A stretch of DNA of 12,591 nt from assembly GCA_027031765.1 (NCBI GenBank), contig JALVPN010000127.1, positions 1-12,591 of the forward strand. Direction: 5' to 3'. Source of the DNA: Promethearchaeota archaeon (GTDB lineage Archaea; Asgardarchaeota; Thorarchaeia; Thorarchaeales; Thorarchaeaceae). Below the pieces are notes generated by a model that saw only the letters and a program-made list of their open reading frames with translations, was not told the origin of the DNA and ran no database searches. The position numbers and the translations under genes were made by a program. Shown in pieces: positions 1-12,493 of this stretch (position 1 is its first letter; every line of letters begins with the position of its first letter).

Positions 1-2
1 AG

Positions 3-74
3 GAGTCGGAGGCGGTCCCCGAAACGGTGGGGGCATCAAGGCCAGTCCCCGCAACTGGAGAGGAGGCTGACTAG
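3..74 (+). CDS. C-terminal fragment of an upstream gene truncated by the window edge; by position probably the hydrogenase small subunit (NuoB/MbhJ-like)
   Basis: Open frame ESEAVPETVGASRPVPATGEEAD ends at TAG 72-74, one base before the GTG at 76. Its GAGGAGG also serves as the RBS of the next gene. The identity comes only from gene order; no motif is visible. Confidence 0.45.
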   Translation, partial: ESEAVPETVGASRPVPATGEEAD

Positions 75-75
75 T

Positions 76-657
76 GTGAGTCCAGAGAAAGACCAAGGCC
101 AGCAGACCGCCGGTGCCCCGGAGTACCACCCGGCCCCCCGTGAGGGGCACGAAACAGAGTACGCCATTCTCGAAGACATCCTCACCAACCTGAGCGGGCA
201 TGTCATCCCGGAGCGGTCCTATGTCCACAAGCAACCACGACGCGTATTCGTCCAGGTGCGGCCAGATAGCATCCGCGAAGTCGTGAAGTACATGATGGAG
301 CACCACAACATGTGGCAGATGTCCACTCTGTCGGGCCGTGACCTTGGTGATGACCTCCAGGCCTGCTATCACTTTTTCCTCAACGACAAGAAGGTTGCCA
401 TTACGTTCCGGTTGGATGTACCACGCAGCCGTCCCGAGTACCCATCAATTACTGACCTGTTCCCAGCTGCCGAGTTTGTTGAGAATGAGATCCGGGAGAT
501 GTTCGGAATTGTGCCAGTGGGGCACCCGAACCCGCGCCGCTGTGAGTTGCCTGAGAACTGGCCCGACGGCGAATACCCACTCCGAAAGGACTGGGCTGAC
601 CCACGTGGTCTGATGGAACGTTCCAAGACCACTGGACCAAGAGTTACGGAGGAGTAA
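76..657 (+). CDS. nuoC: Group 4 [NiFe]-hydrogenase subunit, NuoC/EchD/MbhK family
   Basis: Complex I 30-kDa-family motifs PSITDLFPAAEFVENEIREMFGI and LPENWPDGEYPLRKD. GTG start with a GAGGAGG RBS. The symbol is a family label, not a claim of true complex I. Confidence 0.9.
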   Translation: MSPEKDQGQQTAGAPEYHPAPREGHETEYAILEDILTNLSGHVIPERSYVHKQPRRVFVQVRPDSIREVVKYMMEHHNMWQMSTLSGRDLGDDLQACYHFFLNDKKVAITFRLDVPRSRPEYPSITDLFPAAEFVENEIREMFGIVPVGHPNPRRCELPENWPDGEYPLRKDWADPRGLMERSKTTGPRVTEE

Positions 658-660
658 CGG

Positions 661-1893
661 ATGACCACTCCTGATGAAAGACGAGTCGTAGTCCCTCCCC
701 GTGTGTCAATCCCAATAGGCCCTCAGCACCCCGCCCTCAAAGAGCCCGGGATGTTCAGGCTGACAGTGGAAGGTGAGCGGATTGTCGATGCCGAAGTGAA
801 CATTGGTTACAACCACCGTGGCATCGAGAAGCTTGCCGAGTCAAAGACACACCTGCAGAACCTGTACCTTATGGAGCGGATTTGTGGGATTTGCTCGGCC
901 ACGCACAATGGGAACTATGCGCAGGCCGTCGAGTTCGCAGCAGAAGTCGAGATCCCTGAGCGTGCAAAGTTCATCCGCACCCTTACATGGGAACTGGAAC
1001 GTATTCACTCCCACATACTCTGGCTGGGCGTTGCCTTCCATGAGGTCGGCTTTGATACCGCCTTCATGTATTCGTGGCGGGACCGCGAAGTGGTCATGGA
1101 CATGCTCGAAGACCTCTCCGGGAACCGTGTGAACTATGGCATGAACACGATTGGCGGTGTCCGTCGTGATGTGTCAGACGAGCTCCGCCTGCGTCTGCTG
1201 AAAGGGCTTGACAAGCTTGAGGAACGGATGGAGTACTATCGTGATGTGGCCATCTACGAGAAGACGTTCTGGGACCGTGTTGCGGGCGTGGGTCTCCTTG
1301 AGACCGGAGTGGCCAAGCGGACTGGTGCTGTGGGGCCCACAGCGCGTGGCAGCAACGTACCGGTTGATGTCCGGTTCAACGACCCCACACAGGCATACGC
1401 CCACATCCGGGACTCTGGAGAGTTTGAAATGGTGCTCTCTGACCGTTGCGACGTTGCGGGGCGCTCGATAGTCCGGGTGACTGAAACAATCGAGTCGGTT
1501 CGGATGTGCCGCTGGCTGCTCAACAACATGCCTGATGGCCCAATACGTGAACGTGTCCGTCCCAGGATACAGCCCAACGAGGTCCTCGCAAGGTACGAGG
1601 CCCCTCGCGGTGAGTGTATCCACTATCTTGTCACGAACGGGACACAGAGTCCTGAACGCATCAAGATCCGTGCCCCTACCCACGCAAACTGGGTGAGCAT
1701 GGCCCACTGTCTGCGTGGTGGTTACATCGCGGATGCACCGATTGTCCTTGCTGCAATCGACCCCTGCTTCAGCTGTACAGACAGGGTGGTGATTGTAGAC
1801 GCCGATGAGCACACGCTGGAGTTAGTACCACTCGATGTGCTACGGGTCAGAGCGAACAGGTGGTACAAAGAAAACAACAGGAGTAGCGACTGA
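661..1893 (+). CDS. Group 4 (energy-converting) [NiFe]-hydrogenase large catalytic subunit (NuoD homologue; EchE/MbhL/HycE-like)
   Basis: GPQHPALKEP and HRGIEK motifs, L1 motif ERICGIC (C75/C78, nt 883-894), EAPRGE, and L2 motif DPCFSCTDR (C369/C372, nt 1759-1785) followed by a 35-aa C-terminal extension. Confidence 0.93.
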   Translation: MTTPDERRVVVPPRVSIPIGPQHPALKEPGMFRLTVEGERIVDAEVNIGYNHRGIEKLAESKTHLQNLYLMERICGICSATHNGNYAQAVEFAAEVEIPERAKFIRTLTWELERIHSHILWLGVAFHEVGFDTAFMYSWRDREVVMDMLEDLSGNRVNYGMNTIGGVRRDVSDELRLRLLKGLDKLEERMEYYRDVAIYEKTFWDRVAGVGLLETGVAKRTGAVGPTARGSNVPVDVRFNDPTQAYAHIRDSGEFEMVLSDRCDVAGRSIVRVTETIESVRMCRWLLNNMPDGPIRERVRPRIQPNEVLARYEAPRGECIHYLVTNGTQSPERIKIRAPTHANWVSMAHCLRGGYIADAPIVLAAIDPCFSCTDRVVIVDADEHTLELVPLDVLRVRANRWYKENNRSSD

Positions 1894-1895
1894 AC

Positions 1896-2981
1896 ATGCA
1901 GGCCGTAGGAGTACTTGACCTAGCCGTGCAGGCACTCTGGGTGCTCGTGTTCCCGGGAGTGTTCTTCATCACGACCTTGGCACTGCTCTGGGAGTGGTTG
2001 GACCGCAAGTTCTATGCGCGGCTCCAGAACCGTGTGGGGCCACTGCATACCGGCTGGCACGGCATTCTCCAGCCTCTCATGGACTTCCTAAAGCTGCTCG
2101 GAAAGGAAGACCTCACCCCGGCCAAGGCTGACAGGCGCAGCTTTGCTGCTGTCCCGGTCGTGATGTTAGTCATCAGCCTGACAATGTGTATGTTCCTCCC
2201 GGTTGTCGACATGGACCCGAACACGCCCGGTATCCAGGGCATCCTGAGCTTCGAGGGCGACCTTGTACTTGTCCTGTTTCTGTCGACACTGATGGCAATC
2301 GCAATCGTGCTGGCCGGCCACTTCTCAAGCAACCCGTTTGGGGAAACTGGTGCTGCTCGTACCGGGATGCTCCTCATCAGCTTCGAAATCCCACTAATTC
2401 TTTCTGTACTCACTCCCGCCCTCCTTGCACACAGTCTGCGCATCTCAACAATCACAGAGTCGTTGAAACAGCTGCAGCCTGCATATGCATGGCTCATGGT
2501 GCTCCCCTTTGTAGTATACGTCATAGCGCTGCAGGCCGAACTTGAGAGGATTCCCTTTGATGTCAGCCATGCTGAAACAGAGATTGTACATGGCTGGCAG
2601 GTGGAATACAGTGGGAAGAAGCTTGCCATCATCCACCTTGCTGAGGACATCATGCTGGTCTTTGGTGCAGGCATGGTGACGACACTGTTCTTGGGTGGGC
2701 CCTACCTCCTCGAGTATATTCCACTGGATGTGTTCTCGGCGCAGTTCGCTACGTTCATGGCCACATCTTGGGTGGGCACAGTGTACTACACGCTGGTCTT
2801 TGTGCTCAAGTCCGCCCTTGTAGTCCTCCTGCTGAGCAACATGCGGACGCTTTTCGCACGGTGGCGGATTGACCAGATTGTCCATGCTGGCTGGAAGGTC
2901 ATGGTCCCAATCGCACTCTTCAACTTGATCCTTGTCCATGTCGCACTCACATACATATTCCCAGTGTTGGGGGTGCTGTGA
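1896..2981 (+). CDS. nuoH: Membrane subunit, NuoH/EchB/MbhM family
   Basis: Multiple hydrophobic helices, with LDRKFYARLQNRVGP, GILQPLMDFLKLLGKE, ERIPFDVSHAETEIVHGWQVEYSG and FARWRIDQ motifs typical of complex I subunit 1. Confidence 0.92.
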   Translation: MQAVGVLDLAVQALWVLVFPGVFFITTLALLWEWLDRKFYARLQNRVGPLHTGWHGILQPLMDFLKLLGKEDLTPAKADRRSFAAVPVVMLVISLTMCMFLPVVDMDPNTPGIQGILSFEGDLVLVLFLSTLMAIAIVLAGHFSSNPFGETGAARTGMLLISFEIPLILSVLTPALLAHSLRISTITESLKQLQPAYAWLMVLPFVVYVIALQAELERIPFDVSHAETEIVHGWQVEYSGKKLAIIHLAEDIMLVFGAGMVTTLFLGGPYLLEYIPLDVFSAQFATFMATSWVGTVYYTLVFVLKSALVVLLLSNMRTLFARWRIDQIVHAGWKVMVPIALFNLILVHVALTYIFPVLGVL

Positions 2982-3355
2982 CGATGGTCCGGCTCGGAAA
3001 GATGGAAGGCGAACTGATACGGAGCATTTCAAAGAGGCCTGCAACGGTAATCTACCCGTTCACAAAGGACGGCCTGAACATCCCACCGGGGCTGCGCGCC
3101 CGCTGGTCATATGCCAACCCCGACATGTGCACCGGCTGCAAGATCTGTGAACGCGTGTGCCCCAGTGGTGCCATTGAGATGGTCGAGTGTGGCCCGGATG
3201 ACGTGCGCACCAAGACCGGCTTCCGTCCAATATGCCACTTTGACCGGTGCATACTGTGTGGACAGTGTGTTGAGTCGTGCCCACGTGATGTCCTCCGGCT
3301 GACCGACTCCTTTGAGATGGCCTTTCTCAGCCGTGAGGACATGGTACTCCGTTAG
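2978..3355 (+). CDS. nuoI: 2x[4Fe-4S] subunit, NuoI/EchF/MbhN family
   Basis: PATVIYPF, CTGCKICERVCP and CILCGQCVESCP motifs. The GTG start overlaps the upstream TGA (GTGA); an alternative ATG lies at 2984. Confidence 0.9.
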   Translation: MTMVRLGKMEGELIRSISKRPATVIYPFTKDGLNIPPGLRARWSYANPDMCTGCKICERVCPSGAIEMVECGPDDVRTKTGFRPICHFDRCILCGQCVESCPRDVLRLTDSFEMAFLSREDMVLR

Positions 3356-3357
3356 TC

Positions 3358-3927
3358 TTATGTCTGGGAGGACTCAACAGCCCGCCTCCCGGCCTCTAGC
3401 CCCAGCTCCAGTGCCTTGAGGTTCAGTTCCTTGAACCTTGGCCACCTCTCTGCAATCCGCTGTTTCAGACCCTCCACTGAAACAATCCCGGTTATTGCTG
3501 CAAGGGCACCCAGCATGACAACGTTGGTGGTCTGTTTGTTTCCCACCTCCATGTCGGCAATCCGGGTGGCTGGGATCTTGTACACCCTCACACTTGACGG
3601 AAGGCTGCCCTCAATCTGTACTAAGTCCTCGTCAACAATGAGGATTCCACCCTCCCTCATTCCATCGACGTACTCAAGATATGCAGCCCGGCTCATGGCA
3701 ATGAAGACATCAGGCCGCTGCACCTTCGGGTAGTCTATCTCCTCGTCTCCAATCACAACCTCGCTCTTGCTCGCACCGCCCCGTGCTTCGGGGCCATAGC
3801 TCTGTGTTTGGACGACATACTTGTTGTCTATCAGCGAGAGGGTTTCACCAAGCACCACCGCCATTGTAACTATTCCCTGTCCTCCGAACCCGCCAATCCT
3901 CACCTCGTAGCGGCTCATCCCTGTCAC
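3358..3927 (-). CDS. korC: 2-oxoacid:ferredoxin oxidoreductase gamma subunit
   Basis: GFGGQG, QSYGPEARGGASKSEV, DYP and NVVMLGALA motifs. 4-nt GTGA overlap with the beta gene. Confidence 0.92.
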   Translation of the reverse strand: MTGMSRYEVRIGGFGGQGIVTMAVVLGETLSLIDNKYVVQTQSYGPEARGGASKSEVVIGDEEIDYPKVQRPDVFIAMSRAAYLEYVDGMREGGILIVDEDLVQIEGSLPSSVRVYKIPATRIADMEVGNKQTTNVVMLGALAAITGIVSVEGLKQRIAERWPRFKELNLKALELGLEAGRRAVESSQT

Positions 3928-4766
3928 CCCCGCAGTTTCTTGTAGGCCTCCCGCAGTACCGCGGTGTATTCGGGCTTTTCTACGTCAACAAACTCGCCGC
4001 AGACAATGCGTGTTTCGTAGTCCAGCTCCGCCTCATGTGGGGGCAGGCCGTTCTGTATGTCTGCCACTTCCAGCAAGTGTCTGTGCATTGCCACACCGTC
4101 GCCGAGCCGGTTCATCCGCCCGTATGCAGTGGGGCAGGCGCCGACAATCTCGATGAACGACAGCCCTTTCTTCTCAATCCCCTTCTCTATCGACTTTGTT
4201 GCTCTACGGACATGTACTGCGGTCCACCGTGCAACAAATGTCGCTCCTGACGATGCGGCGAGCTTCACGAGGTTGAAGCTATGTTCTACGTTCCCAATCG
4301 GTGGCGGGCTGGTCTGTGTATATCGGAGGTGCTCAGTTGTTGGCCCGAACTGGCCTCCTGTCATCCCGTAATTGAAGTTGTTGACACAGACGATGGTCAT
4401 GTCGATGTTCCGACGACAGGCATGTATCAGGTGGTTGCCCCCGATGGCAGCAATATCGCCGTCGCCGGAAACAACGATGACTTCAAGTTCGGGGTTTGCA
4501 ATCTTCACACCTTCCGCAAATGCGATTGCCCGCCCATGGGTGGTGTAGTACGTGCCGGTCTTGAAGTAGCCTGATGTGCGGCCCGTGCACCCAATTCCTG
4601 AGACCACAACCACCTTGGAGAAGTCAATACCAAGGTTGTCGATTGCACGCGCAACCATTCCAGTGACAATCCCGACTGAACAGCCGGAACAGTAGATCCA
4701 TGGCTGACGGTCCTCACGTATGTACTTTGCCATCGGGTGCTTGAGCACCGGGACGGACTCGGTCAT
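3924..4766 (-). CDS. korB: 2-oxoacid:ferredoxin oxidoreductase beta subunit (TPP-binding)
   Basis: CSGC, SGIGC, THGRA, GDGD...IGGNH...NNFNYGMTGGQ TPP-binding motif and CPT. ATGA overlap with the alpha gene; GAGGTG RBS. Confidence 0.93.
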   Translation of the reverse strand: MTESVPVLKHPMAKYIREDRQPWIYCSGCSVGIVTGMVARAIDNLGIDFSKVVVVSGIGCTGRTSGYFKTGTYYTTHGRAIAFAEGVKIANPELEVIVVSGDGDIAAIGGNHLIHACRRNIDMTIVCVNNFNYGMTGGQFGPTTEHLRYTQTSPPPIGNVEHSFNLVKLAASSGATFVARWTAVHVRRATKSIEKGIEKKGLSFIEIVGACPTAYGRMNRLGDGVAMHRHLLEVADIQNGLPPHEAELDYETRIVCGEFVDVEKPEYTAVLREAYKKLRG

Positions 4767-5899
4767 GATGAGTGCACCTCTCTAATCATCTGGACGATTT
4801 CTTGTGGGAGCTGAGGCATCCCCGCTGGCTTCGTCATCAGGTGTACGGGTGTCGGCGATGCTGCAGCCTTCACCATGTAGTATATCTGCCCAAGGTTCTG
4901 CTCTGCAACTATTATCTGTTTGACCTTGGTCGCAAGGTCGACCACATGTCTTTCTGGGAACGGCCACACGGTCTTGAGTCTCAGGAGGCCTGCACGGATG
5001 CCCTCCTGCCGTACGTCCTTGATTGCACGCTTCGCGCTCCTTGAGGGGGTGCCATAGGCGATGACTGCTATCTCCGCATCATCGAGCATGAACTCCTCGA
5101 CCTCGACTATCTTGTCTGCATTCTTGAGTATCTTGTTGTTCAGCCGGGTAATCAGCTCTATCTGCACCTCTTCCTTATCGCTCGGATACCCCCTCTCGTC
5201 ATGGGTGAGTCCGGTCGCGTAGAACTGATACTTGGTGCCAAGGAGTGCCATCGGTGGTACTAGGTCGTCATCAGGCTTGAACGGGAGGTATTCGGACGGG
5301 TCTACAGTGGGGAGTTTACGGTATTCCAGCTTGATGTCCTTTTCATCTGGGATTACCAAGCGCTCTCTCATGTGGCCCACGGTTTCGTCCGCGAGCAGAA
5401 AGACTGGCACACGATAACGCTCCGAGAGGTTGAAGGCCCGGATGGTTTCGTCGAACATCTCCTGTACTGATGCTGGTGTCAGCGCAATGATCTGGTAGTC
5501 CCCATGGCTGCCCCACTTTGCCTGCATTACGTCGCCCTGCTGACCCCTTGTCGGCTGTCCTGTGCTCGGCCCGCCACGCATTATGTTTACCAACACCAGT
5601 GGTGTTTCGGTCATCACTGCAAGTCCAACTGCCTCCATCATGAGGCTTACTCCTGGGCCTGAGGTGGCAGTCATTGCCTTGGTGCCAGTCCATGATGCTC
5701 CGATGACGCTTGTGATGGATGCTATTTCGTCCTCGTACTGCACGTATGCCCCACCGACCTCCGGCATCCTCCGTGCCATCCACTCTGCAATCTCAGTGGC
5801 CGGCGTTATGGGGTAGCCCCCGAAGTACCTGCAGCCGGCGCTTATGGCGCCCTCTGCACATGCTATGTCGCCCATTGTGAACATGATGCGTTTGGGCAT
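4763..5899 (-). CDS. korA: 2-oxoacid:ferredoxin oxidoreductase alpha subunit (2-oxoglutarate-type; substrate not certain)
   Basis: YPITP, EDEIAS, ATSGPG, RGGPSTGQPT and LKTVWPFP motifs. GGAGGTG RBS at 5909-5915. Confidence 0.93.
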   Translation of the reverse strand: MPKRIMFTMGDIACAEGAISAGCRYFGGYPITPATEIAEWMARRMPEVGGAYVQYEDEIASITSVIGASWTGTKAMTATSGPGVSLMMEAVGLAVMTETPLVLVNIMRGGPSTGQPTRGQQGDVMQAKWGSHGDYQIIALTPASVQEMFDETIRAFNLSERYRVPVFLLADETVGHMRERLVIPDEKDIKLEYRKLPTVDPSEYLPFKPDDDLVPPMALLGTKYQFYATGLTHDERGYPSDKEEVQIELITRLNNKILKNADKIVEVEEFMLDDAEIAVIAYGTPSRSAKRAIKDVRQEGIRAGLLRLKTVWPFPERHVVDLATKVKQIIVAEQNLGQIYYMVKAAASPTPVHLMTKPAGMPQLPQEIVQMIREVHSS

Positions 5900-6253
5900 C
5901 TATTGCTCCACCTCCTGTGCCTTCTTCGCGGCCTCAAACTCTGGGATTAGTGTGCCCTCCTGCAGAGCACCAGCCTCGTATGCCTTCAGGGCCTCCTCCC
6001 TGTCTGCAAGGAATATTGCCATGTCCGGACAGATCCTCTCACAGAACTCACAGTTGACGCAGGAGTCGATGTCACAAGCCGTGACAGGGTGGTATCCCTT
6101 TCGGTTGTACTTTGCCGTATCAATGCAGAGTACATTCTTCGGGCAGAACTCGACACAGAGGCTACACTGTTTACACTGTTCTTGGAGTATGACCAGTACC
6201 TTCTGTCTGGTTCGCGGAGGCCTCGGAGTTATTGGTTTTCGTATAGCTGACAT
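5900..6253 (-). CDS. korD: 2-oxoacid:ferredoxin oxidoreductase delta subunit (2x[4Fe-4S] ferredoxin-like)
   Basis: CKQCSLCVEFCP and CVNCEFCERICP motifs with NRKGYHP between them. First gene of the kor operon; its stop abuts the korA start. Confidence 0.88.
   Translation of the reverse strand: MSAIRKPITPRPPRTRQKVLVILQEQCKQCSLCVEFCPKNVLCIDTAKYNRKGYHPVTACDIDSCVNCEFCERICPDMAIFLADREEALKAYEAGALQEGTLIPEFEAAKKAQEVEQ
5909..5915 (-). promoter_or_regulatory. Shine-Dalgarno site (GGAGGTG) for korA, embedded in the korD 3' end
   Basis: CACCTCC on the + strand, 9 nt from the korA ATG at 5899. Confidence 0.7.
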
Positions 6254-6487: not shown

Positions 6488-6952
6488 TTGCCCGAGGACG
6501 AGATCTCTGAAGAGGAGCTCGCTAAGATTCTCAAGGGCAAGACCCTGCGAGTCTATTGGTACATGCTACGGCACCCTGTCCCAATGACAGCACGAGAAAT
6601 CCAGAGGGGGGCCGAGCTCTCAAGCCCTTCACTGTCCATGCACCACCTAGAGCGGCTGAGGTCTATTGGTCTTGTTGACAAGAATGTCCATGGCGAGTAT
6701 TCGGTGGTGCGTGATGTGCGGGTGGGGCTCCTGAAACTGTTCATAGGTCGGGGGCGTCTTATGGCACCCCGTTTTCTTTTCTATGCGACATTCTACACAT
6801 CCCTGACAGCTGCACTGGCCACAATGTTCTGGCGCTATTCTGACTGGTACTCCGGTCTTGTGCTCGCCCTGCTGATTTCGGCATGCGCCGTCCTGTGGCA
6901 CGAAGCATTCAAAATATGGAGGGAACAGCCATTCTCGGAACACGAGGAATAG
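6488..6952 (+). CDS. Membrane-tethered winged helix-turn-helix transcriptional regulator (ArsR-like N-terminal domain plus two C-terminal TM helices)
   Basis: wHTH pattern LKGKTLRVYWYML...MTAREIQRGAELSSPSLSMHHLERLRSIGLVDK...GEY, then two hydrophobic segments (FLFYATFYTSLTAALATMFW and YSGLVLALLISACAVLW). TTG start preceded by GGGAGATGTGA. Confidence 0.8.
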   Translation: MPEDEISEEELAKILKGKTLRVYWYMLRHPVPMTAREIQRGAELSSPSLSMHHLERLRSIGLVDKNVHGEYSVVRDVRVGLLKLFIGRGRLMAPRFLFYATFYTSLTAALATMFWRYSDWYSGLVLALLISACAVLWHEAFKIWREQPFSEHEE

Positions 6953-6969
6953 CTGCAAGAAGTAGAACT

Positions 6970-7986
6970 ATGAAAGATGGTGCCCAAGGCTTGGGCGTGC
7001 GGAGTACCACTCAGATGTATGTCCGAATCCACGCAGTACTGTTCGTCATCATCTGTTCAACACTGTTCGCACAGTCGTATGTGCTCGTGGTATCAGGCCC
7101 ACACTGCCCGTGCAACCCGCACCCGCGGATTACAGCGCCAACTGAGTTCATCGCAGACTCGACAGGCCCGCTCCATTTCAACCTCACCCATTATTCCCGT
7201 TGGAACCGTACTCTGACGCCAGTGCACCCGGGTGACTCGATTCAGGGTGACCATATTGTCCTCAATGCGACTTGGCAAGGAACCGGTACACCAAACAGGA
7301 CCCGAATAGAGGTGCATGCCAGTGCTATCCCCTCTGTAATTACCAATGAAACGGCCGGCCCGTCAGTGGAGATTGACACGCGGAACCTAGGCAATAATGC
7401 CACATGTACAATCAACATGACAGTCCTGTTTCTCAACGGCACGGTGTACTTTGAAACGGTCGAGGATGTCTTTCTAGGGAACTTCTTTGTCCCCCACATC
7501 ATCGTGCTAAGTCCGAATGGTGGCGAGGTCTGGACTGGCCGCAACAATGTAACATGGTATGCATGGGACAACAACACTGATGAAACCCTCACATTTGAGG
7601 TGTTGTTCTCCTCGGATGCCGGCATGACATTCCAGCTGCTGGCCGTGGGGATTACCGACTTCTGGTACGAGTGGGACTGTTCAGGCTTTCTGAACCTGAG
7701 CACCTATGTGGTTGAGGTACGTGTTTCAGACGGGATATACCGGTCTTTTGACAGGTCTGACGCCACATTCAGAGCTGGAGACGTGCCACCCACAACGACG
7801 ACGACGACGACAACCACCACAACGACGACGACGACAACCACCACAACGACGACGACGACAACCACCACAACGACAGCGACGGTCCACGAGCCGACCCTGA
7901 CGACTGCAGTGGTCATTGCAGTTTCAATAATCGCCAGTGCGTTCCTTGCGCTTACCGTCTACTATGTCGCGAAGACGCGTTTATGA
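6970..7986 (+). CDS. Secreted, C-terminally anchored surface glycoprotein with a poly-Thr linker
   Basis: N-terminal hydrophobic signal-like segment, beta-rich ectodomain with VLSPNGGEVW (seen in Ser/Thr-rich surface-protein Ig-like domains), 11 N-x-S/T sequons, 28 consecutive Thr, C-terminal TM helix and basic tail AKTRL. Start is ATG 6970 or 7015; ATG 6883 would overlap the upstream gene by 70 nt. Confidence 0.82.
   Translation: MKDGAQGLGVRSTTQMYVRIHAVLFVIICSTLFAQSYVLVVSGPHCPCNPHPRITAPTEFIADSTGPLHFNLTHYSRWNRTLTPVHPGDSIQGDHIVLNATWQGTGTPNRTRIEVHASAIPSVITNETAGPSVEIDTRNLGNNATCTINMTVLFLNGTVYFETVEDVFLGNFFVPHIIVLSPNGGEVWTGRNNVTWYAWDNNTDETLTFEVLFSSDAGMTFQLLAVGITDFWYEWDCSGFLNLSTYVVEVRVSDGIYRSFDRSDATFRAGDVPPTTTTTTTTTTTTTTTTTTTTTTTTTTTTATVHEPTLTTAVVIAVSIIASAFLALTVYYVAKTRL
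7792..7875 (+). repeat. Poly-Thr coding tandem repeat containing three exact copies of a 24-bp unit
   Basis: ACGACGACGACGACAACCACCACA occurs at 7798-7821, 7822-7845 and 7846-7869, inside 28 consecutive ACN codons. Confidence 0.95.
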
Positions 7987-8132
7987 TGCACTTCACCCCT
8001 GGTTCCCGGCAAAGGTGGTAAGGGGGTGTTTCGGGACTCACTCCCATCACTGTCCGTCTGGCTGTTGGGCGGCCATTGCGTCGCAGCACATACGTACGAA
8101 CCATTGCTCGTGGGGTCTCGATAGGCGGGGTG

Positions 8133-9029
8133 TTACCCGAGCACCTTGCGGAGCACCGGCTCGGTGCTGACAACATGTTTGTGGAGCCCGAGTTCCTTTG
8201 GTCCGAGTCCCATTGCGAGACCGAGCAGTTGTGTATAGTACACCACAGGGAGCCGATATCTCTCTTCTCCGAGCTCCTTGTTCAGCTGTGCTTGTGACAT
8301 CTCGAACTGCAGGTGGCAAAACGAGCACACGTTCAAAACACAGTCTGCACCAGCCTCAAGCACGTTGTCAATCTTCTCCTGCGCGATATCCACACTGACC
8401 GGGACATTGCTGCCCCTCACACCGCCCCCGGCCCCACAGCACTGGAACTTGTCCTTGTACTTCACACTGTGAGCGCCGGTGGCCTCGACCAGCTCGTCCA
8501 AGAAAGTCGGTCTGGCCGATTTCTTCCAGGGCCGGAGCACACTCGGTTTCAAGAGGTGGCACCCATAGTGTACGGCCACCTCAAGACCGTCCAGTGGGCG
8601 CACGACCTTCTCACGGATAGCGTCAGGCCCCAGGTCATAGACCACCTCAATGAGATGCTTTGCATCGGCCTCGGCACGGTACCGCAGTCCCAGTCCCTTG
8701 AACACCTTCTGTACGTCCCGCAGCTTCTCCGGGTGCTCGTGTACGATGTGTAGGGCCTCCTTGAATGTGCCGTAGCAGCCGTTGCACCCTGTAATAATGT
8801 CGTGTCCAGCTTTCTCCGCGAGTGCGAGGTTCCGCGAGGCTAGGGCCAGCCAGGTCGGTTCGTCAAACGAGCGTATCACGCCCGGCGCAGGACAACAACT
8901 GGCCCCCTCCAACTCCTCAAGATGGATACCGAGTCTCGGGAGCACCTCCCGGATTGACTTCTCCACATTTGGGAACCGGTTCGGCATCACACAACCGAGG
9001 AAGAACGAGTACGTCTGGCTCACAGTCAT
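8133..9029 (-). CDS. hdrB: Heterodisulfide reductase subunit B, copy 1
   Basis: Two CCG domains with all ten Cys: FLGCVMPNRF, ASCCPAPG, GCNGC, HYGCH, QCCGAGGG and VCSFCHLQF. Confidence 0.93.
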   Translation of the reverse strand: MTVSQTYSFFLGCVMPNRFPNVEKSIREVLPRLGIHLEELEGASCCPAPGVIRSFDEPTWLALASRNLALAEKAGHDIITGCNGCYGTFKEALHIVHEHPEKLRDVQKVFKGLGLRYRAEADAKHLIEVVYDLGPDAIREKVVRPLDGLEVAVHYGCHLLKPSVLRPWKKSARPTFLDELVEATGAHSVKYKDKFQCCGAGGGVRGSNVPVSVDIAQEKIDNVLEAGADCVLNVCSFCHLQFEMSQAQLNKELGEERYRLPVVYYTQLLGLAMGLGPKELGLHKHVVSTEPVLRKVLG

Positions 9030-9032
9030 CCC

Positions 9033-9578
9033 CTAGTCCTCCTCTCCTTGCCCTTCAATGAGGGCCGTGAACCCTGTCCTCCTCATGATTTCCTGCACCT
9101 GCTCCAAGGCATCGGGGTGTGAGTGTACAGTCGGGGGGACTCGGTCGAGTCCCAGCTCCTCTCGCTTCGTCATGTTAGCGTCATTGATAGGTACCGCATG
9201 CCCAGTGGCTATCAGTTTCATCGACGTCTTCCTGTGCTGAGGGAGCATGAAACCCTCACGCACAGCCATGTTCCTCATGAGGATGATGGCATCGGTTGTC
9301 TTAATCTCTCTTGGACACCGTTCAAGACATGTGAAGCAGGTCGTGCACAGCCAGAGATCCGGGCTCGACAGCACTTCACCTTTCAGTCCAAGCAGGGCCT
9401 TGCGTATCAGCTCCCGTGTACGGAATGCAGTCCGCCTCCCACTCGGGCAGACACTTGAACAGGTCCCACACTGCAGGCAGGCCCTTATCCTGTCGGCACC
9501 GGCTGCAATCAGTGCATCCACGAACTCCGGGTCAATGTCATCAATGTGGATGGTCTCCCGAGCTATCGCATCCGTCAT
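9033..9578 (-). CDS. hdrC: Heterodisulfide reductase subunit C, copy 1
   Basis: CLQCGTCSSVCP, LWLCTTCFTCLERCP and TGHAVP motifs. Ends 3 nt upstream of hdrB1; TGAGGT RBS at 9585-9590. Confidence 0.92.
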   Translation of the reverse strand: MTDAIARETIHIDDIDPEFVDALIAAGADRIRACLQCGTCSSVCPSGRRTAFRTRELIRKALLGLKGEVLSSPDLWLCTTCFTCLERCPREIKTTDAIILMRNMAVREGFMLPQHRKTSMKLIATGHAVPINDANMTKREELGLDRVPPTVHSHPDALEQVQEIMRRTGFTALIEGQGEED

Positions 9579-9614
9579 GGAATGACCTCAAGTCCGAACG
9601 CGCGGAGTTTCACG

Positions 9615-9620
9615 ATATAA
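9615..9620 (-). promoter_or_regulatory. Putative TATA box of the hdrC1-hdrB1 operon
   Basis: TTATAT on the minus strand, about 37 nt upstream of the ATG at 9578, which is a plausible archaeal spacing for a short leader carrying an SD site. Confidence 0.6.
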
Positions 9621-9788
9621 GAGTGCTGTTACCGACAGGCCGCCCCCCATTGCAGTCGCCTGCCCGCTACCAGTATGCCAGTTTTCAATGCCAATAGGTT
9701 CATCTGCACCTGGACTGACGGACGATCGTGATGGTTCGGAGTGCTGTCCTGTGCACCACTCTGACCGCATGCATTCCCGGGCGGCTGC

Positions 9789-10889
9789 CTACTCGAAGTA
9801 GTACTGTTCTCCGGAAAGAAAGGGGGCGTTCCCAATGCGTACGTTTGTCAGCCCTGCCCCGAGCGCCTCTTCTCTGGCCGCAAGTGCATGGGCACGTGAT
9901 GTCCTGGGGAGATCCGACATCATATGGTGTGGGCTGAACCCGAGCAGCGCGGTTGGGATGGTCGGGTCACAACTGGCAATGAAGTCGCAGATCCGTCGCA
10001 CTTCCTTGGTGCCGACATAACCGGGTACGAGCAGTATGCTTGCAACAAGAAACTCTCCCTCCCGTTTCCGGCCAATCGCGGCCAAGTGCCTGAAGTTATT
10101 GATGACCGTCCTGTTCCCAATCCCCGTGAGTGCAGTGTATAATTGTGGTGTTAGTGCCTTCAGGTCGACCTTGATAGTCCCACCGCTGTCACGCACGACA
10201 TCCGTGATACGCCCAAGCCACTTCCGTGAGAGGTTCCCATTTGTTTCATAGCACACTCTCACTGCCTGCTGCTTGACCAGCGCCTCTGATGTTGCGATGG
10301 AGTGCTCAGGGTTACATGCAGGGTCGCCACCAAAGTAACACACGCAGACCGTCCTGGGACTGGCACATGCAGCCAGCTCCTCTGGTGTCATCAACGGCCG
10401 TCCGCTCCGTGTCATGGCACGGAACGTCGCGTTCTGGCAGAACAGGCAGTCCGAATTGCATGACCCATAGAACACGGCAAGGTTGTATACTGGTCGACCA
10501 ACAATACCAGTACGGGTGCCAGTCTGCAGCATCTGTGGGCACACCCAGTCTGCAACACAGTTTGTTGGCAGCGGGTCATAGTACCATGACACTATTGCCC
10601 TCCGTCCATACACCCTCTTGATGTGCCCTCCGACGGCCCTACGCAGCCCACAGAACCCCAGCTCCCCATCGTGGAGTCTGCAGTGGTTGCCGCAGTCTGG
10701 ACACACATCATTGCCGTCATGTGGCACTATGGGCACCAGTCCCTCTGCCAGGCGTCCCCTCCTGTGGGCGTCGGCTGCAGCACTGGCACAGCCCTCATCT
10801 GTGACTATGCATTCCCCGCAGAAGCCGATGGCAGCGGCGGCGGGCCGCCCCTCACGAGTGTGCCTGGGACACAACATTTGGCATCTCAT
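9789..10889 (-). CDS. Radical SAM protein, PflA/AmmeMemoRadiSam-related archaeal subfamily with a Cys-rich N-terminus; function unknown
   Basis: CxxxCxxC motif (CNSDCLFC), YFGGDP, ETNG, KVDLKA and LLVPGY, plus an N-terminal CPDCGNHC...GFCGLR. The start is probably ATG 10889 (MRCQMLC); the longer 11180 ORF would overlap hdrC2 and its promoter. Confidence 0.85.
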   Translation of the reverse strand: MRCQMLCPRHTREGRPAAAAIGFCGECIVTDEGCASAAADAHRRGRLAEGLVPIVPHDGNDVCPDCGNHCRLHDGELGFCGLRRAVGGHIKRVYGRRAIVSWYYDPLPTNCVADWVCPQMLQTGTRTGIVGRPVYNLAVFYGSCNSDCLFCQNATFRAMTRSGRPLMTPEELAACASPRTVCVCYFGGDPACNPEHSIATSEALVKQQAVRVCYETNGNLSRKWLGRITDVVRDSGGTIKVDLKALTPQLYTALTGIGNRTVINNFRHLAAIGRKREGEFLVASILLVPGYVGTKEVRRICDFIASCDPTIPTALLGFSPHHMMSDLPRTSRAHALAAREEALGAGLTNVRIGNAPFLSGEQYYFE

Positions 10890-10950
10890 GCACGGCACAA
10901 TCCCATAACTCTTTGGAGGAACACCCCGTAACGGCGGGTGCCTGCTCCGC

Positions 10951-10981
10951 TTGTCATAGGGGTGTACAACCCATTTGACAA
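10951..10981. promoter_or_regulatory. 31-bp imperfect palindrome; candidate operator in the divergent radical SAM / hdrC2 promoter
   Basis: TTGTCATAGGGGTGTACAACCCATTTGACAA: 11 of 15 symmetric positions are complementary, with perfect TTGTCA/TGACAA ends. It stops 4 nt before a TATA-like box. Confidence 0.5.
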
Positions 10982-10985
10982 TGGA

Positions 10986-10991
10986 TTTAAG
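10986..10991 (+). promoter_or_regulatory. Putative TATA box of the hdrC2-hdrB2 operon
   Basis: TTTAAG about 40 nt upstream of the GTG at 11032, with a GGTG SD-like site at 11021-11024. Confidence 0.55.
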
Positions 10992-11031
10992 GGCGAACTT
11001 CATTCGCAGCCCACCGGGCCGGTGCGTGACT

Positions 11032-11574
11032 GTGACGAGCGTTGCTGAACAACCAGTGATAGACATCGACAATACGGATACCGAGTTCGTAGAGATGATA
11101 CTCCGGACCGGGGGCCCCAATATCAGGAACTGCTTCCAATGTGGTACTTGTAGTGGCAGTTGTCCAGCCGGTGCACGCACGAACTACCTTGTCCGGGCCA
11201 TAATACGAAAGGCCCTCCTTGGCCTTAAGGACGAAGTACTGTCTGCTCCTGAACTGTGGTACTGCACTACCTGCTATACCTGTACCGACCGGTGTCCCCA
11301 GGATGTCCGTCCCACCGACGTCATCAAGGCAATCCGGAACATCGCGGTGGCTGAGGGTTACATGCTTGCCCCTCACCAGAAAGTGGCCCACAAGGTGCTG
11401 GAGGCCGGTCACGCCGTCCCCCTCGACAAGGAGTCCTGGCAGAAGTTGCGGGAGCGAGTTGGTCTCGAGCCGGTACCGCCGAACGCAAGCAGTCATCCTG
11501 AGGCCATCGAGGAGATCCGCAAGATTGCCCGGAAGACCGGCTTTGACCTCTTGGTGAAGTGGGAGGACAAATAG
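11032..11574 (+). CDS. hdrC: Heterodisulfide reductase subunit C, copy 2
   Basis: CFQCGTCSGSCP, LWYCTTCYTCTDRCP and AGHAVP motifs. The start is probably GTG 11032 or 11026; TTG 10975 lies upstream of the TATA box. Confidence 0.92.
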   Translation: MTSVAEQPVIDIDNTDTEFVEMILRTGGPNIRNCFQCGTCSGSCPAGARTNYLVRAIIRKALLGLKDEVLSAPELWYCTTCYTCTDRCPQDVRPTDVIKAIRNIAVAEGYMLAPHQKVAHKVLEAGHAVPLDKESWQKLRERVGLEPVPPNASSHPEAIEEIRKIARKTGFDLLVKWEDK

Positions 11575-11575
11575 A

Positions 11576-12493
11576 ATGTCTGACCGACCCGCCTTCTATC
11601 ACTTCTTGGGCTGCATAATCCCACACCGGTACCCCAGCATCGAGAAGGCCACCCGCCTTGTCTTTGAGGACCTCGACATGGAGCTCCTCGATATGGTGGG
11701 TGCAAGTTGCTGCCCTGCACCCGGCGTCTTCGGTTCATTCGAGCGGGTCACATGGGCGACCATTGCGGCGCGGAACCTCACGATTGCGGAGCAGGGTGGC
11801 CACCCGATTACTACCGGGTGCAATGGCTGTTTCGCCTCATTGTGGGACGCCAACCACGAGCTGAAGCACGACCCTGAACTCCGTGCTGCAGTGAACGAGA
11901 ACCTGGCTGAGATTGGCCGCGAGTTCAAGGGTGTCATTGAGGTCACCCACTACGTCGACGCCCTCTACAATTATGCGGGCCTCGATAAGATTCGGAGCCG
12001 TGTTGTCCGCCCCCTTGAAGGAGTCCGCATGGCACTCCACCCGGGCTGCCACTGGATGCGTCCAAAGCTCGTTAAGAGGAAGGACGACTCAGAACACCCA
12101 CACATCTTCAGGGAGGTCTGTGAGACCACTGGTGCCACGTATGTACCGTACAAGGACGAGCTCATGTGTTGTGGTGCCGGGGGCGCAGTCCGGACGGCTG
12201 ATGTGAAAGTGGCCCTCGACTTCACACGCCAGAAGTTCGACAGTCTGATTGCAGCAGGTGGCGCTGACCTCATAGTCACTCCGTGCCCGTTCTGTGAACT
12301 CCAACTCGACCTGGGCCAAGTGGAAATCAAGAAGCACTTCGGTCTTGACTATCACTTCGATGTGCTCCACGTATCCGAACTGCTTGCGCTCGCATTCGGG
12401 CACGAGCCTGATGAGTTCGGCCTGGCGACACACCTACAGTACCTGCAGCGCAAGTCTGAGCCGGACTGGAAGCGTCTGGGAATACGGGCATGA
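11576..12493 (+). CDS. hdrB: Heterodisulfide reductase subunit B, copy 2
   Basis: Two CCG domains with all ten Cys: FLGCIIPHRY, ASCCPAPGVFGSF, GCNGC, HPGCH, MCCGAGG and PCPFCELQL. Starts 1 nt after the hdrC2 stop. Confidence 0.93.
   Translation: MSDRPAFYHFLGCIIPHRYPSIEKATRLVFEDLDMELLDMVGASCCPAPGVFGSFERVTWATIAARNLTIAEQGGHPITTGCNGCFASLWDANHELKHDPELRAAVNENLAEIGREFKGVIEVTHYVDALYNYAGLDKIRSRVVRPLEGVRMALHPGCHWMRPKLVKRKDDSEHPHIFREVCETTGATYVPYKDELMCCGAGGAVRTADVKVALDFTRQKFDSLIAAGGADLIVTPCPFCELQLDLGQVEIKKHFGLDYHFDVLHVSELLALAFGHEPDEFGLATHLQYLQRKSEPDWKRLGIRA

Follow-up and report, generated by a model that had tools for sequence, protein, structure and literature searches.

Two divergent methanogen-type hdrCB pairs of Thorarchaeia and the probably dispensable radical SAM gene between them

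When two heterodisulfide reductase (Hdr) gene pairs point away from each other around a radical S-adenosylmethionine (SAM) gene, with neither hdrA nor mvh beside them, do they encode a new, HdrA-independent system or an ordinary Hdr module with partners encoded elsewhere? The question is raised by contig JALVPN010000127.1 (C127 below) of a Thorarchaeota metagenome-assembled genome (MAG), which comprises 2.95 Mb in 229 contigs and is 95% complete. The window that we analysed is the whole of this 12.6-kb contig (12,591 nucleotides, nt), and the closest relatives of its genes are found exclusively in Thorarchaeota (Asgard) MAGs. On the minus strand, hdrB1 (8133-9029, 298 amino acids, aa) and hdrC1 (9033-9578, 181 aa) form the first pair; the second, on the plus strand, consists of hdrC2 (11026-11574, about 180-182 aa, with a GTG start at 11026 or 11032 preceded by a GGTG site) and hdrB2 (11576-12493, 305 aa). 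The hdrC-hdrB gap is 3 nt in the first pair and 1 nt in the second. Between the pairs lies a PflA-like radical SAM gene (9789-10889, minus strand, PF04055) of 366 aa, or 362 aa from the ATG at 10877, where gene callers put its start. This gene content and these coordinates agree with a preliminary description of the contig, made from its sequence, which had proposed that the pairs may be HdrA-independent disulfide or persulfide reductases and that the radical SAM enzyme could make or modify their thiol cofactor or mature the enzyme. Our literature search found no published description of an hdrCB/radical SAM/hdrCB layout.

In our analysis the locus has the look of an ordinary Hdr module rather than that of a new, HdrA-independent system. 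The explanation that we think probable is that two paralogous HdrBC modules work for bifurcating complexes built on HdrA, whose genes lie elsewhere in the genome, and that the radical SAM gene is a dispensable, class-specific neighbour. The modules are anciently diverged and of the methanogen type, and their divergent gene pair is kept throughout Thorarchaeia. They would dock on HdrA-type bifurcating flavoproteins (HdrA, HdrA-MvhD fusions, MvhAG hydrogenase) and serve as the high-potential acceptor arm of flavin-based electron bifurcation, yielding reduced ferredoxin; by homology only, HdrC with its two [4Fe-4S] clusters would relay single electrons to HdrB.

Two methanogen-type HdrBC modules

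If the two pairs are methanogen-type modules, then their proteins should match the methanogen families along their whole length. Both HdrB proteins, each with two CCG domains (two PF02754 matches in HdrB1), exceed the NCBIfam equivalog cut-off of 345.15 bits for subunit B of the coenzyme B (CoB)-coenzyme M (CoM) heterodisulfide reductase (TIGR03288), at 384.5 bits for HdrB1 and 377.0 bits for HdrB2, and they are the two best of 19 matches to this family in the genome. HdrC1 and HdrC2, at 211.8 and 195.2 bits, are likewise above the NCBIfam cut-off of 160 bits for HdrC (TIGR03290). When compared with chains of solved methanogen HdrABC complexes, HdrB1 matches PDB chain 5odc_B at 349.8 bits with all CCG cysteines aligned, HdrB2 matches 8rvv_B/8rvu_b at 334 bits and HdrC1 matches 8rvu_c at 206 bits. 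The alignments of HdrB1 and HdrB2 with solved HdrB chains run end to end and score 326-350 bits (277-283 bits for 7BKB).

The preliminary description had read the Fe-S ligand cysteines as intact in all four Hdr proteins, and both alignment and orthologue comparison confirm this. All ten CCG cysteines are kept in HdrB1 and HdrB2 (alignment to 5odc_B and 8rvv_B), and each HdrC has two [4Fe-4S] ferredoxin-like motifs of the form CxxCxxCxxxCP with every ligand present. Among Thorarchaeota orthologues, the CCG cysteines are invariant, and stops absent, in 65 HdrB1 and 58 HdrB2 sequences, while both HdrC motifs are invariant in 69 HdrC1 and 58 HdrC2 sequences.

We also compared the substrate pocket. 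A 2026 study lists the residues that contact the bound products in 5ODR as Arg14, Gly46, Gly198, Arg201, Arg240 and Phe233 (PMC13261682), and we mapped these onto HdrB1 and HdrB2 through the alignments to solved HdrB chains. Five of the six CoM/CoB contacts (Arg14, Gly46, Gly198, Arg201 and Phe233) are kept in both paralogues; at the position of Arg240, HdrB1 has Met, HdrB2 has Leu and the methanogen chain 8rvv_B has Val. In the same 65 and 58 orthologues the pocket residues are invariant or nearly so.

HdrC1 and HdrC2 are 49% identical, in agreement with the earlier estimate of about half, and HdrB1 and HdrB2 are 40% identical. With 58-69 orthologues of each protein, invariant ligands and no stops, the suggestion that the duplication is old and that both copies are maintained is upheld. 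With cluster ligands and pocket residues that hardly vary, if at all, and orthologues free of stops, both hdrBC copies are, as judged from the sequences, clearly under selection.

Duplicate sets of this kind have a precedent in methanogens: in Methanococcales, a single organism has both HdrB1C1 and HdrB2C2 for its complexes with HdrA. PDB 9SFI, with chains called subunit B2 and subunit C2, is an example. Two diverged HdrBC paralogue sets occur there as at our locus, but the sets described here stand head to head, are only 40-49% identical and are not sisters in the HdrB tree. More generally, the locus resembles the methanogen HdrABC-MvhAGD and Hdr-Fdh complexes (5ODC/5ODR, 8RVU/8RVV, 7BKB, 9SFI) in its HdrB and HdrC alignments, CCG cysteines, ferredoxin motifs and five of six contacts. 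It differs from them in the replacement of Arg240 and in its host, a member of Thorarchaeota without mcrA, comA and comD.

The radical SAM gene and the promoters

If the radical SAM enzyme were an obligate maturase or cofactor enzyme, as had been proposed, then it should accompany the hdr genes wherever they occur. Queries with the radical SAM protein and HdrB1 against species-representative genomes returned about 70 Thorarchaeota loci. Throughout these, the block hdrB2-hdrC2 / radical SAM-hdrC1-hdrB1 / ORF-HTH / oorDABG (ORF, open reading frame; HTH, helix-turn-helix gene), often with nuo, is syntenic. The full set of four hdr genes is present in 53 species loci, all of which show the divergent hdrCB pairs, but only 42 of them have the radical SAM gene. 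In the other 11, hdrC1 and hdrC2 directly face one another, and when the absences are placed on a tree of the concatenated Hdr proteins they require 5-6 changes or more. Five of the genomes without the gene contain no radical SAM orthologue, the best matches anywhere in them being paralogues that are 24-33% identical (E 1e-5 to 1e-10). The paired hdrCB genes are thus class-wide, whereas the radical SAM gene has been lost repeatedly.

In the Hdr alignments we found no position that is constant where the gene is present and different where it is missing. Between loci with and without it, residue frequencies differ by 0.61 at most, and the changes are all conservative swaps that track phylogeny. 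Outside Thorarchaeota we find about 60 homologues of the radical SAM protein (31-47% identity, from many bacterial and archaeal phyla) with no hdr gene within 8 kb; eight distant homologues have no common gene neighbours, and the distant homologues are equally without names. Within Thorarchaeota the gene, when present, is always at the hdr locus. An obligate role is therefore not borne out, given 11 of 53 loci without the gene, at least five losses, no orthologue elsewhere in five such genomes and no hdr linkage outside the class. That it disappeared several times from loci whose four hdr genes stayed whole speaks against its being needed, and in the reading that we favour it is a neighbour peculiar to the class that Hdr can do without.

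The region around this gene also varies in length. One relative carries two tandem radical SAM copies (L112:2115-5000), and several others (L110, L130, L145, L152 and L154) have an extra 0.8-1.5 kb between the radical SAM gene and hdrC1. This spacer is 210 nt in the window versus 69-90 nt in most relatives.

The protein has the CxxxCxxC motif (CNSDCLFC), and its N-terminal extension, about 120 aa long and rich in Cys, contains ten invariant Cys and His residues (C7, C24, C27, H42, C63, C66, C70, C80, C111 and C117). For its confident structure model (pLDDT 89.9) the best solved fold is that of pyruvate formate-lyase (PFL) activase (TMt 0.72-0.74), a predicted likeness that extends to the core fold only. 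The CxxxCxxC motif together with an N-terminal CxxCxNxC...GxC motif recalls PflX/AmmeMemoRadiSam-like proteins, and the extra N-terminal Cys/His ribbon sets the protein apart from both PFL activase and AmmeMemoRadiSam. We considered two family names and rejected each. As an AmmeMemoRadiSam enzyme it scores 66.6 bits against a TIGR04337 cut-off of 220, while true members are encoded elsewhere in the genome, on contigs C145 (296 bits) and C165 (226 bits). As a glycyl-radical activase it scores 37.3 bits against a TIGR02493 cut-off of 231.75; because the genome is without a glycyl-radical enzyme (no PF02901 or PF01228 match), it is not a usual activase of the PflA kind.

Is the radical SAM gene tied to the hdr genes by transcription? 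We judged promoter elements by comparing the intergenic regions of related loci. In the promoter region of hdrC1 (9584-9623, minus strand), the TATA-like element CTCTTATATC at 9614-9623 stands about 40 nt 5' of the ATG and is followed by a GAGGTC Shine-Dalgarno site at 9584-9589; the GAGGTC site and a CTTATAT box, the latter about 40-50 nt 5' of the hdrC1 start, recur at like distance in 14 related loci. Since hdrC1 has its own conserved TATA box and Shine-Dalgarno site, these elements indicate that hdrC1B1 can be transcribed independently. A further TATA-like element, GGATTTAAGG at 10983-10992, lies where the radical SAM gene and hdrC2 diverge, within the short stretch that separates them, and as read on the opposite strand (CCTTAAATCC) it is conserved in related loci. 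The radical SAM gene, which has the orientation of hdrC1-hdrB1, has its promoter region in common with hdrC2; by these predicted elements, it and hdrC2B2 are served by one bidirectional promoter region of about 85-140 bp. The earlier claim that each hdrCB pair has its own TATA-like box is supported by these comparisons, with the addition that the box of hdrC2 is also that of the radical SAM gene. A sigma-70 promoter and terminator scan gave no signal above shuffled sequence and is not applicable to archaea. No RNA run is listed among the public runs that contain this stretch; it is present only in the DNA run of a hydrothermal vent metagenome that is its probable source.

Probable HdrA partners and the disulfide

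The preliminary description had stressed that no hdrA or mvh lies nearby. None is present on the 12.6-kb contig, but on the hdrB2 side this statement cannot be assessed, because the contig stops 98 nt past the end of hdrB2. A search of the genome, as that description had suggested, locates such genes outside the window: at least 8 HdrA-like genes, 7 MvhD domains and two MvhAG sets, with a canonical hdrA-mvhD-mvhG-mvhA cluster on contig C115. Several of the genome's clusters have two HdrA-like genes for a single hdrCB pair, leaving a surplus of HdrA. Contig C143 encodes a 1197-aa HdrA-HdrA-MvhD fusion (9309-12902, minus strand), made of two HdrA-like segments and a C-terminal MvhD domain, and then an hdrC (8785-9312) and an hdrB (7909-8784).

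What lies past hdrB2 can be seen in relatives. Among the 17 with at least 4 kb of sequence beyond this gene, 12 have an orthologue of the C143 fusion (70-80% identity) on the same strand 0.3-5.2 kb further on. In two loci, L018 and L031, the fusion directly follows hdrB2 and is itself followed by a third hdrC-hdrB pair. Beyond Thorarchaeota, the nearest relatives of both pairs adjoin hdrA (L161, L162, L164 and L170; Heimdallarchaeota, Thermoplasmata, Thermoproteota and another MAG). In methanogens, too, distance between these genes is common: Methanothermobacter has mvhDGAB, hdrA and hdrBC as three units that do not adjoin, and most methanogens have hdrA apart from hdrBC (PMC3087415), as at our locus. 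An hdrBC pair without a neighbouring hdrA is therefore normal for this enzyme type.

An HdrB phylogeny had been suggested as a check, and it lends HdrA independence no support. HdrB1 and HdrB2 are the most methanogen-like HdrB proteins of the genome; they are not sisters, and both fall in a weakly supported clade with the canonical HdrB of Methanospirillum. The tree was taken from a profile search of a 50%-identity representative library, is weakly resolved and is used qualitatively only. That search returned anonymous proteins, the closest 47% identical, with no Thorarchaeota cluster representatives listed. The best library matches to the HdrB1+HdrB2 profile, P0122, P0123 and P0124 (609-617 aa), consist of an N-terminal region of about 300 aa, by eye like tetratricopeptide repeats, fused to a full HdrB domain, and in the tree they group with HdrB2 and Heimdallarchaeota HdrB.

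Collectively, the HdrA-like, MvhD and MvhAG genes of the genome, the fusion beyond hdrB2 in 12 of 17 relatives and the hdrA-linked outgroup relatives speak against HdrA independence. The preliminary description had itself named what would undo its proposal, namely a radical SAM gene not conserved beside hdrCB in related genomes and HdrB copies that group with HdrABC-associated HdrB whose hdrA partners lie elsewhere, and this is largely what we find.

Which disulfide would such modules reduce? The genome search for mcr and CoM synthesis genes turned up no mcrA, comA or comD, so that CoM-S-S-CoB is unlikely to be available in the host. By its sequence the anion-binding pocket is conserved, and the disulfide is for this reason probably a small anionic compound resembling CoM-S-S-CoB. 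The genome does contain mtrA. Thorarchaeota are reported to retain remnants of methanogenesis (bioRxiv 10.1101/2021.08.02.454722), and the presence of mtrA without mcrA, comA and comD is in line with that report.

Several further features of the hdr regions deserve mention. Orthologues of the HdrA fusion lie at L017:239-4090 and L018:2515-5982, and a tandem HdrA of this kind could replace the HdrA homodimer of methanogen complexes. Beside the fusion in L018, a second radical SAM-type ORF (L018:26-1099, plus strand, CPWNRCTFC) converges on the third hdrB, with a possible counterpart at C143:6768-7904 (plus strand). On contig C109 an hdrB is cut by the contig end (12665-13294, profile positions 1-195), and an HdrB C-terminus lies at C115:3-194 (positions 223-288); the two contigs probably adjoin, giving the order hdrA-like-hdrC-hdrB-hdrA-mvhD-mvhG-mvhA.

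The remainder of contig C127 carries other genes. Its left part holds nuoC, nuoD, nuoH and nuoI on the plus strand, and to the right of these an operon for the four subunits (delta-alpha-beta-gamma) of a 2-oxoacid:ferredoxin oxidoreductase runs along the minus strand, the whole occupying positions 1-6253 and belonging, with the hdr locus, to the class-wide syntenic block. The nuo and oor genes are distinct transcription units that differ in orientation. The nearest membrane-complex gene, nuoI, ends 4.7 kb from the hdr genes and is in another transcription unit. Between these genes and hdrB1 stand an ArsR-like HTH gene (6488-6952, plus strand) and a 367-aa ORF (6883-7986, plus strand), which overlap by 70 nt, are convergent to hdrB1 and are kept in nearly all Thorarchaeota loci. 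The 367-aa ORF belongs to no family by Pfam and NCBIfam (best Atlas score 0.80), and its conservation of 38-62% is far below that of the neighbouring genes.

Competing readings and what the locus means

Several points weigh against assigning the two HdrBC modules to HdrA-based complexes encoded elsewhere. Every other full hdrCB pair in the genome adjoins an hdrA-like gene, and these two do not; and support for the HdrB clade is weak (Shimodaira-Hasegawa-like approximate likelihood ratio test, SH-aLRT, 87). The genome, 95% complete, yielded no mcrA, comA or comD, which makes it likely that the canonical substrate is missing. Finally, the restriction of the radical SAM gene to this one position and the promoter region that it has in common with hdrC2 leave room for a conditional functional link. 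Some of the same facts might suggest disulfide or persulfide reductases that do without HdrA and are fed by ferredoxin or by the Nuo-like membrane complex of the same contig: the contig has no hdrA or mvh, the two pairs are the genome's only ones without an adjoining hdrA-like gene, the nuo-oor-hdr block is syntenic across Thorarchaeota, and the organism is without mcrA, comA and comD. However, nuo and oor form transcription units of their own that differ in orientation and lie 4.7 kb or more away; their synteny is thus no more than the conservation of a block in one class. Known HdrA-independent enzymes combine a fused HdrD with a membrane partner, whereas here HdrC and HdrB are separate and of the HdrABC type, and no membrane partner stands alongside, which also led us to reject an HdrDE or Fpo-HdrD type of enzyme. 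Moreover, an unlinked hdrA is the norm for the methanogen HdrBC type (PMC3087415), the nearest outgroup relatives are hdrA-linked, and an HdrA fusion lies past hdrB2 in most relatives. No positive evidence for HdrA independence goes beyond gene position, and we regard it as very unlikely.

The radical SAM enzyme could instead be a conditional Hdr accessory that modifies or repairs an Hdr subunit or makes the thiol substrate. Its gene is present in 42 of 53 loci, every Thorarchaeota orthologue found is at this position only, and it is co-directional with hdrC1B1 and served, like hdrC2B2, by the bidirectional promoter region (about 85-140 bp) between them; the protein has many invariant extra cysteines and the predicted fold of a protein-directed activase, yet the genome is without a glycyl-radical enzyme. 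Such a role is hard to square with at least five losses that left the four hdr genes intact, in genomes with no orthologue elsewhere, and with Hdr proteins in which no residue is constant in its presence and altered in its absence. In addition, homologues in other phyla are without hdr neighbours or a common context, and hdrC1 retains its own TATA box. We therefore find a conditional accessory unlikely. A different arrangement, made attractive by the gene order in relatives but doubtful in our judgement, is a heteromer like that of the sHdr system, in which HdrB1C1 and HdrB2C2 (or HdrB2C2 and HdrB3C3) would sit on the two halves of the HdrA-HdrA-MvhD fusion to give an asymmetric complex with two disulfide sites. 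The 1197-aa protein of C143, with its two HdrA-like segments and MvhD, would suit this arrangement, as would the co-directional order hdrC2-hdrB2-hdrA fusion-hdrC3-hdrB3 in L018 and L031, with a gap of about 0.3-0.4 kb, which we take to resemble the hdrC1B1A-hyp-hdrC2B2 order of sulfur oxidisers. Set against it, the fusion is on another contig here, where the genes upstream of it are unrelated over 18 kb or more; 2-4 unrelated opposite-strand genes intervene in other relatives; both HdrB proteins are of the methanogen type, not the sHdr type; and no lipoate-binding protein or lipoate-assembly genes are adjacent. The likeness to sHdr (hdrC1B1A-hyp-hdrC2B2, LbpA and a lipoate-assembly radical SAM protein) consists of two hdrC-hdrB pairs and a nearby radical SAM gene. 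We rejected membership in that system, in which hdrA and hyp stand between the pairs and LbpA and lipoate-assembly genes adjoin them; at our locus neither hdrA nor hyp intervenes, the only radical SAM protein is PflA-like and not lipoyl-synthase-like, and the three GcvH/LbpA-like genes of the genome are on contigs C40, C100 and C101, with none on an hdr contig. A combination for an archaeon that makes no methane and apparently no CoM, in which both modules dock asymmetrically on the tandem HdrA-HdrA-MvhD protein and reduce a disulfide other than CoM/CoB while the radical SAM enzyme acts as a conditional helper on the thiol or on an Hdr subunit, also seems improbable to us.

With two HdrBC modules that probably serve HdrA-based complexes, the locus does not define a new class of system, and an HdrA-independent enzyme serviced by a radical SAM protein is not borne out. 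Its interest lies in the modules themselves: Thorarchaeota keep, under strong purifying selection, two very methanogen-like HdrBC sets with an almost intact CoM/CoB pocket. The locus fits the view that this class carries remnants of methanogen metabolism (bioRxiv 10.1101/2021.08.02.454722). Which disulfide Hdr modules reduce in non-methanogenic organisms has long been a puzzle, and HdrB1C1 and HdrB2C2 offer two well-defined proteins for substrate assays.

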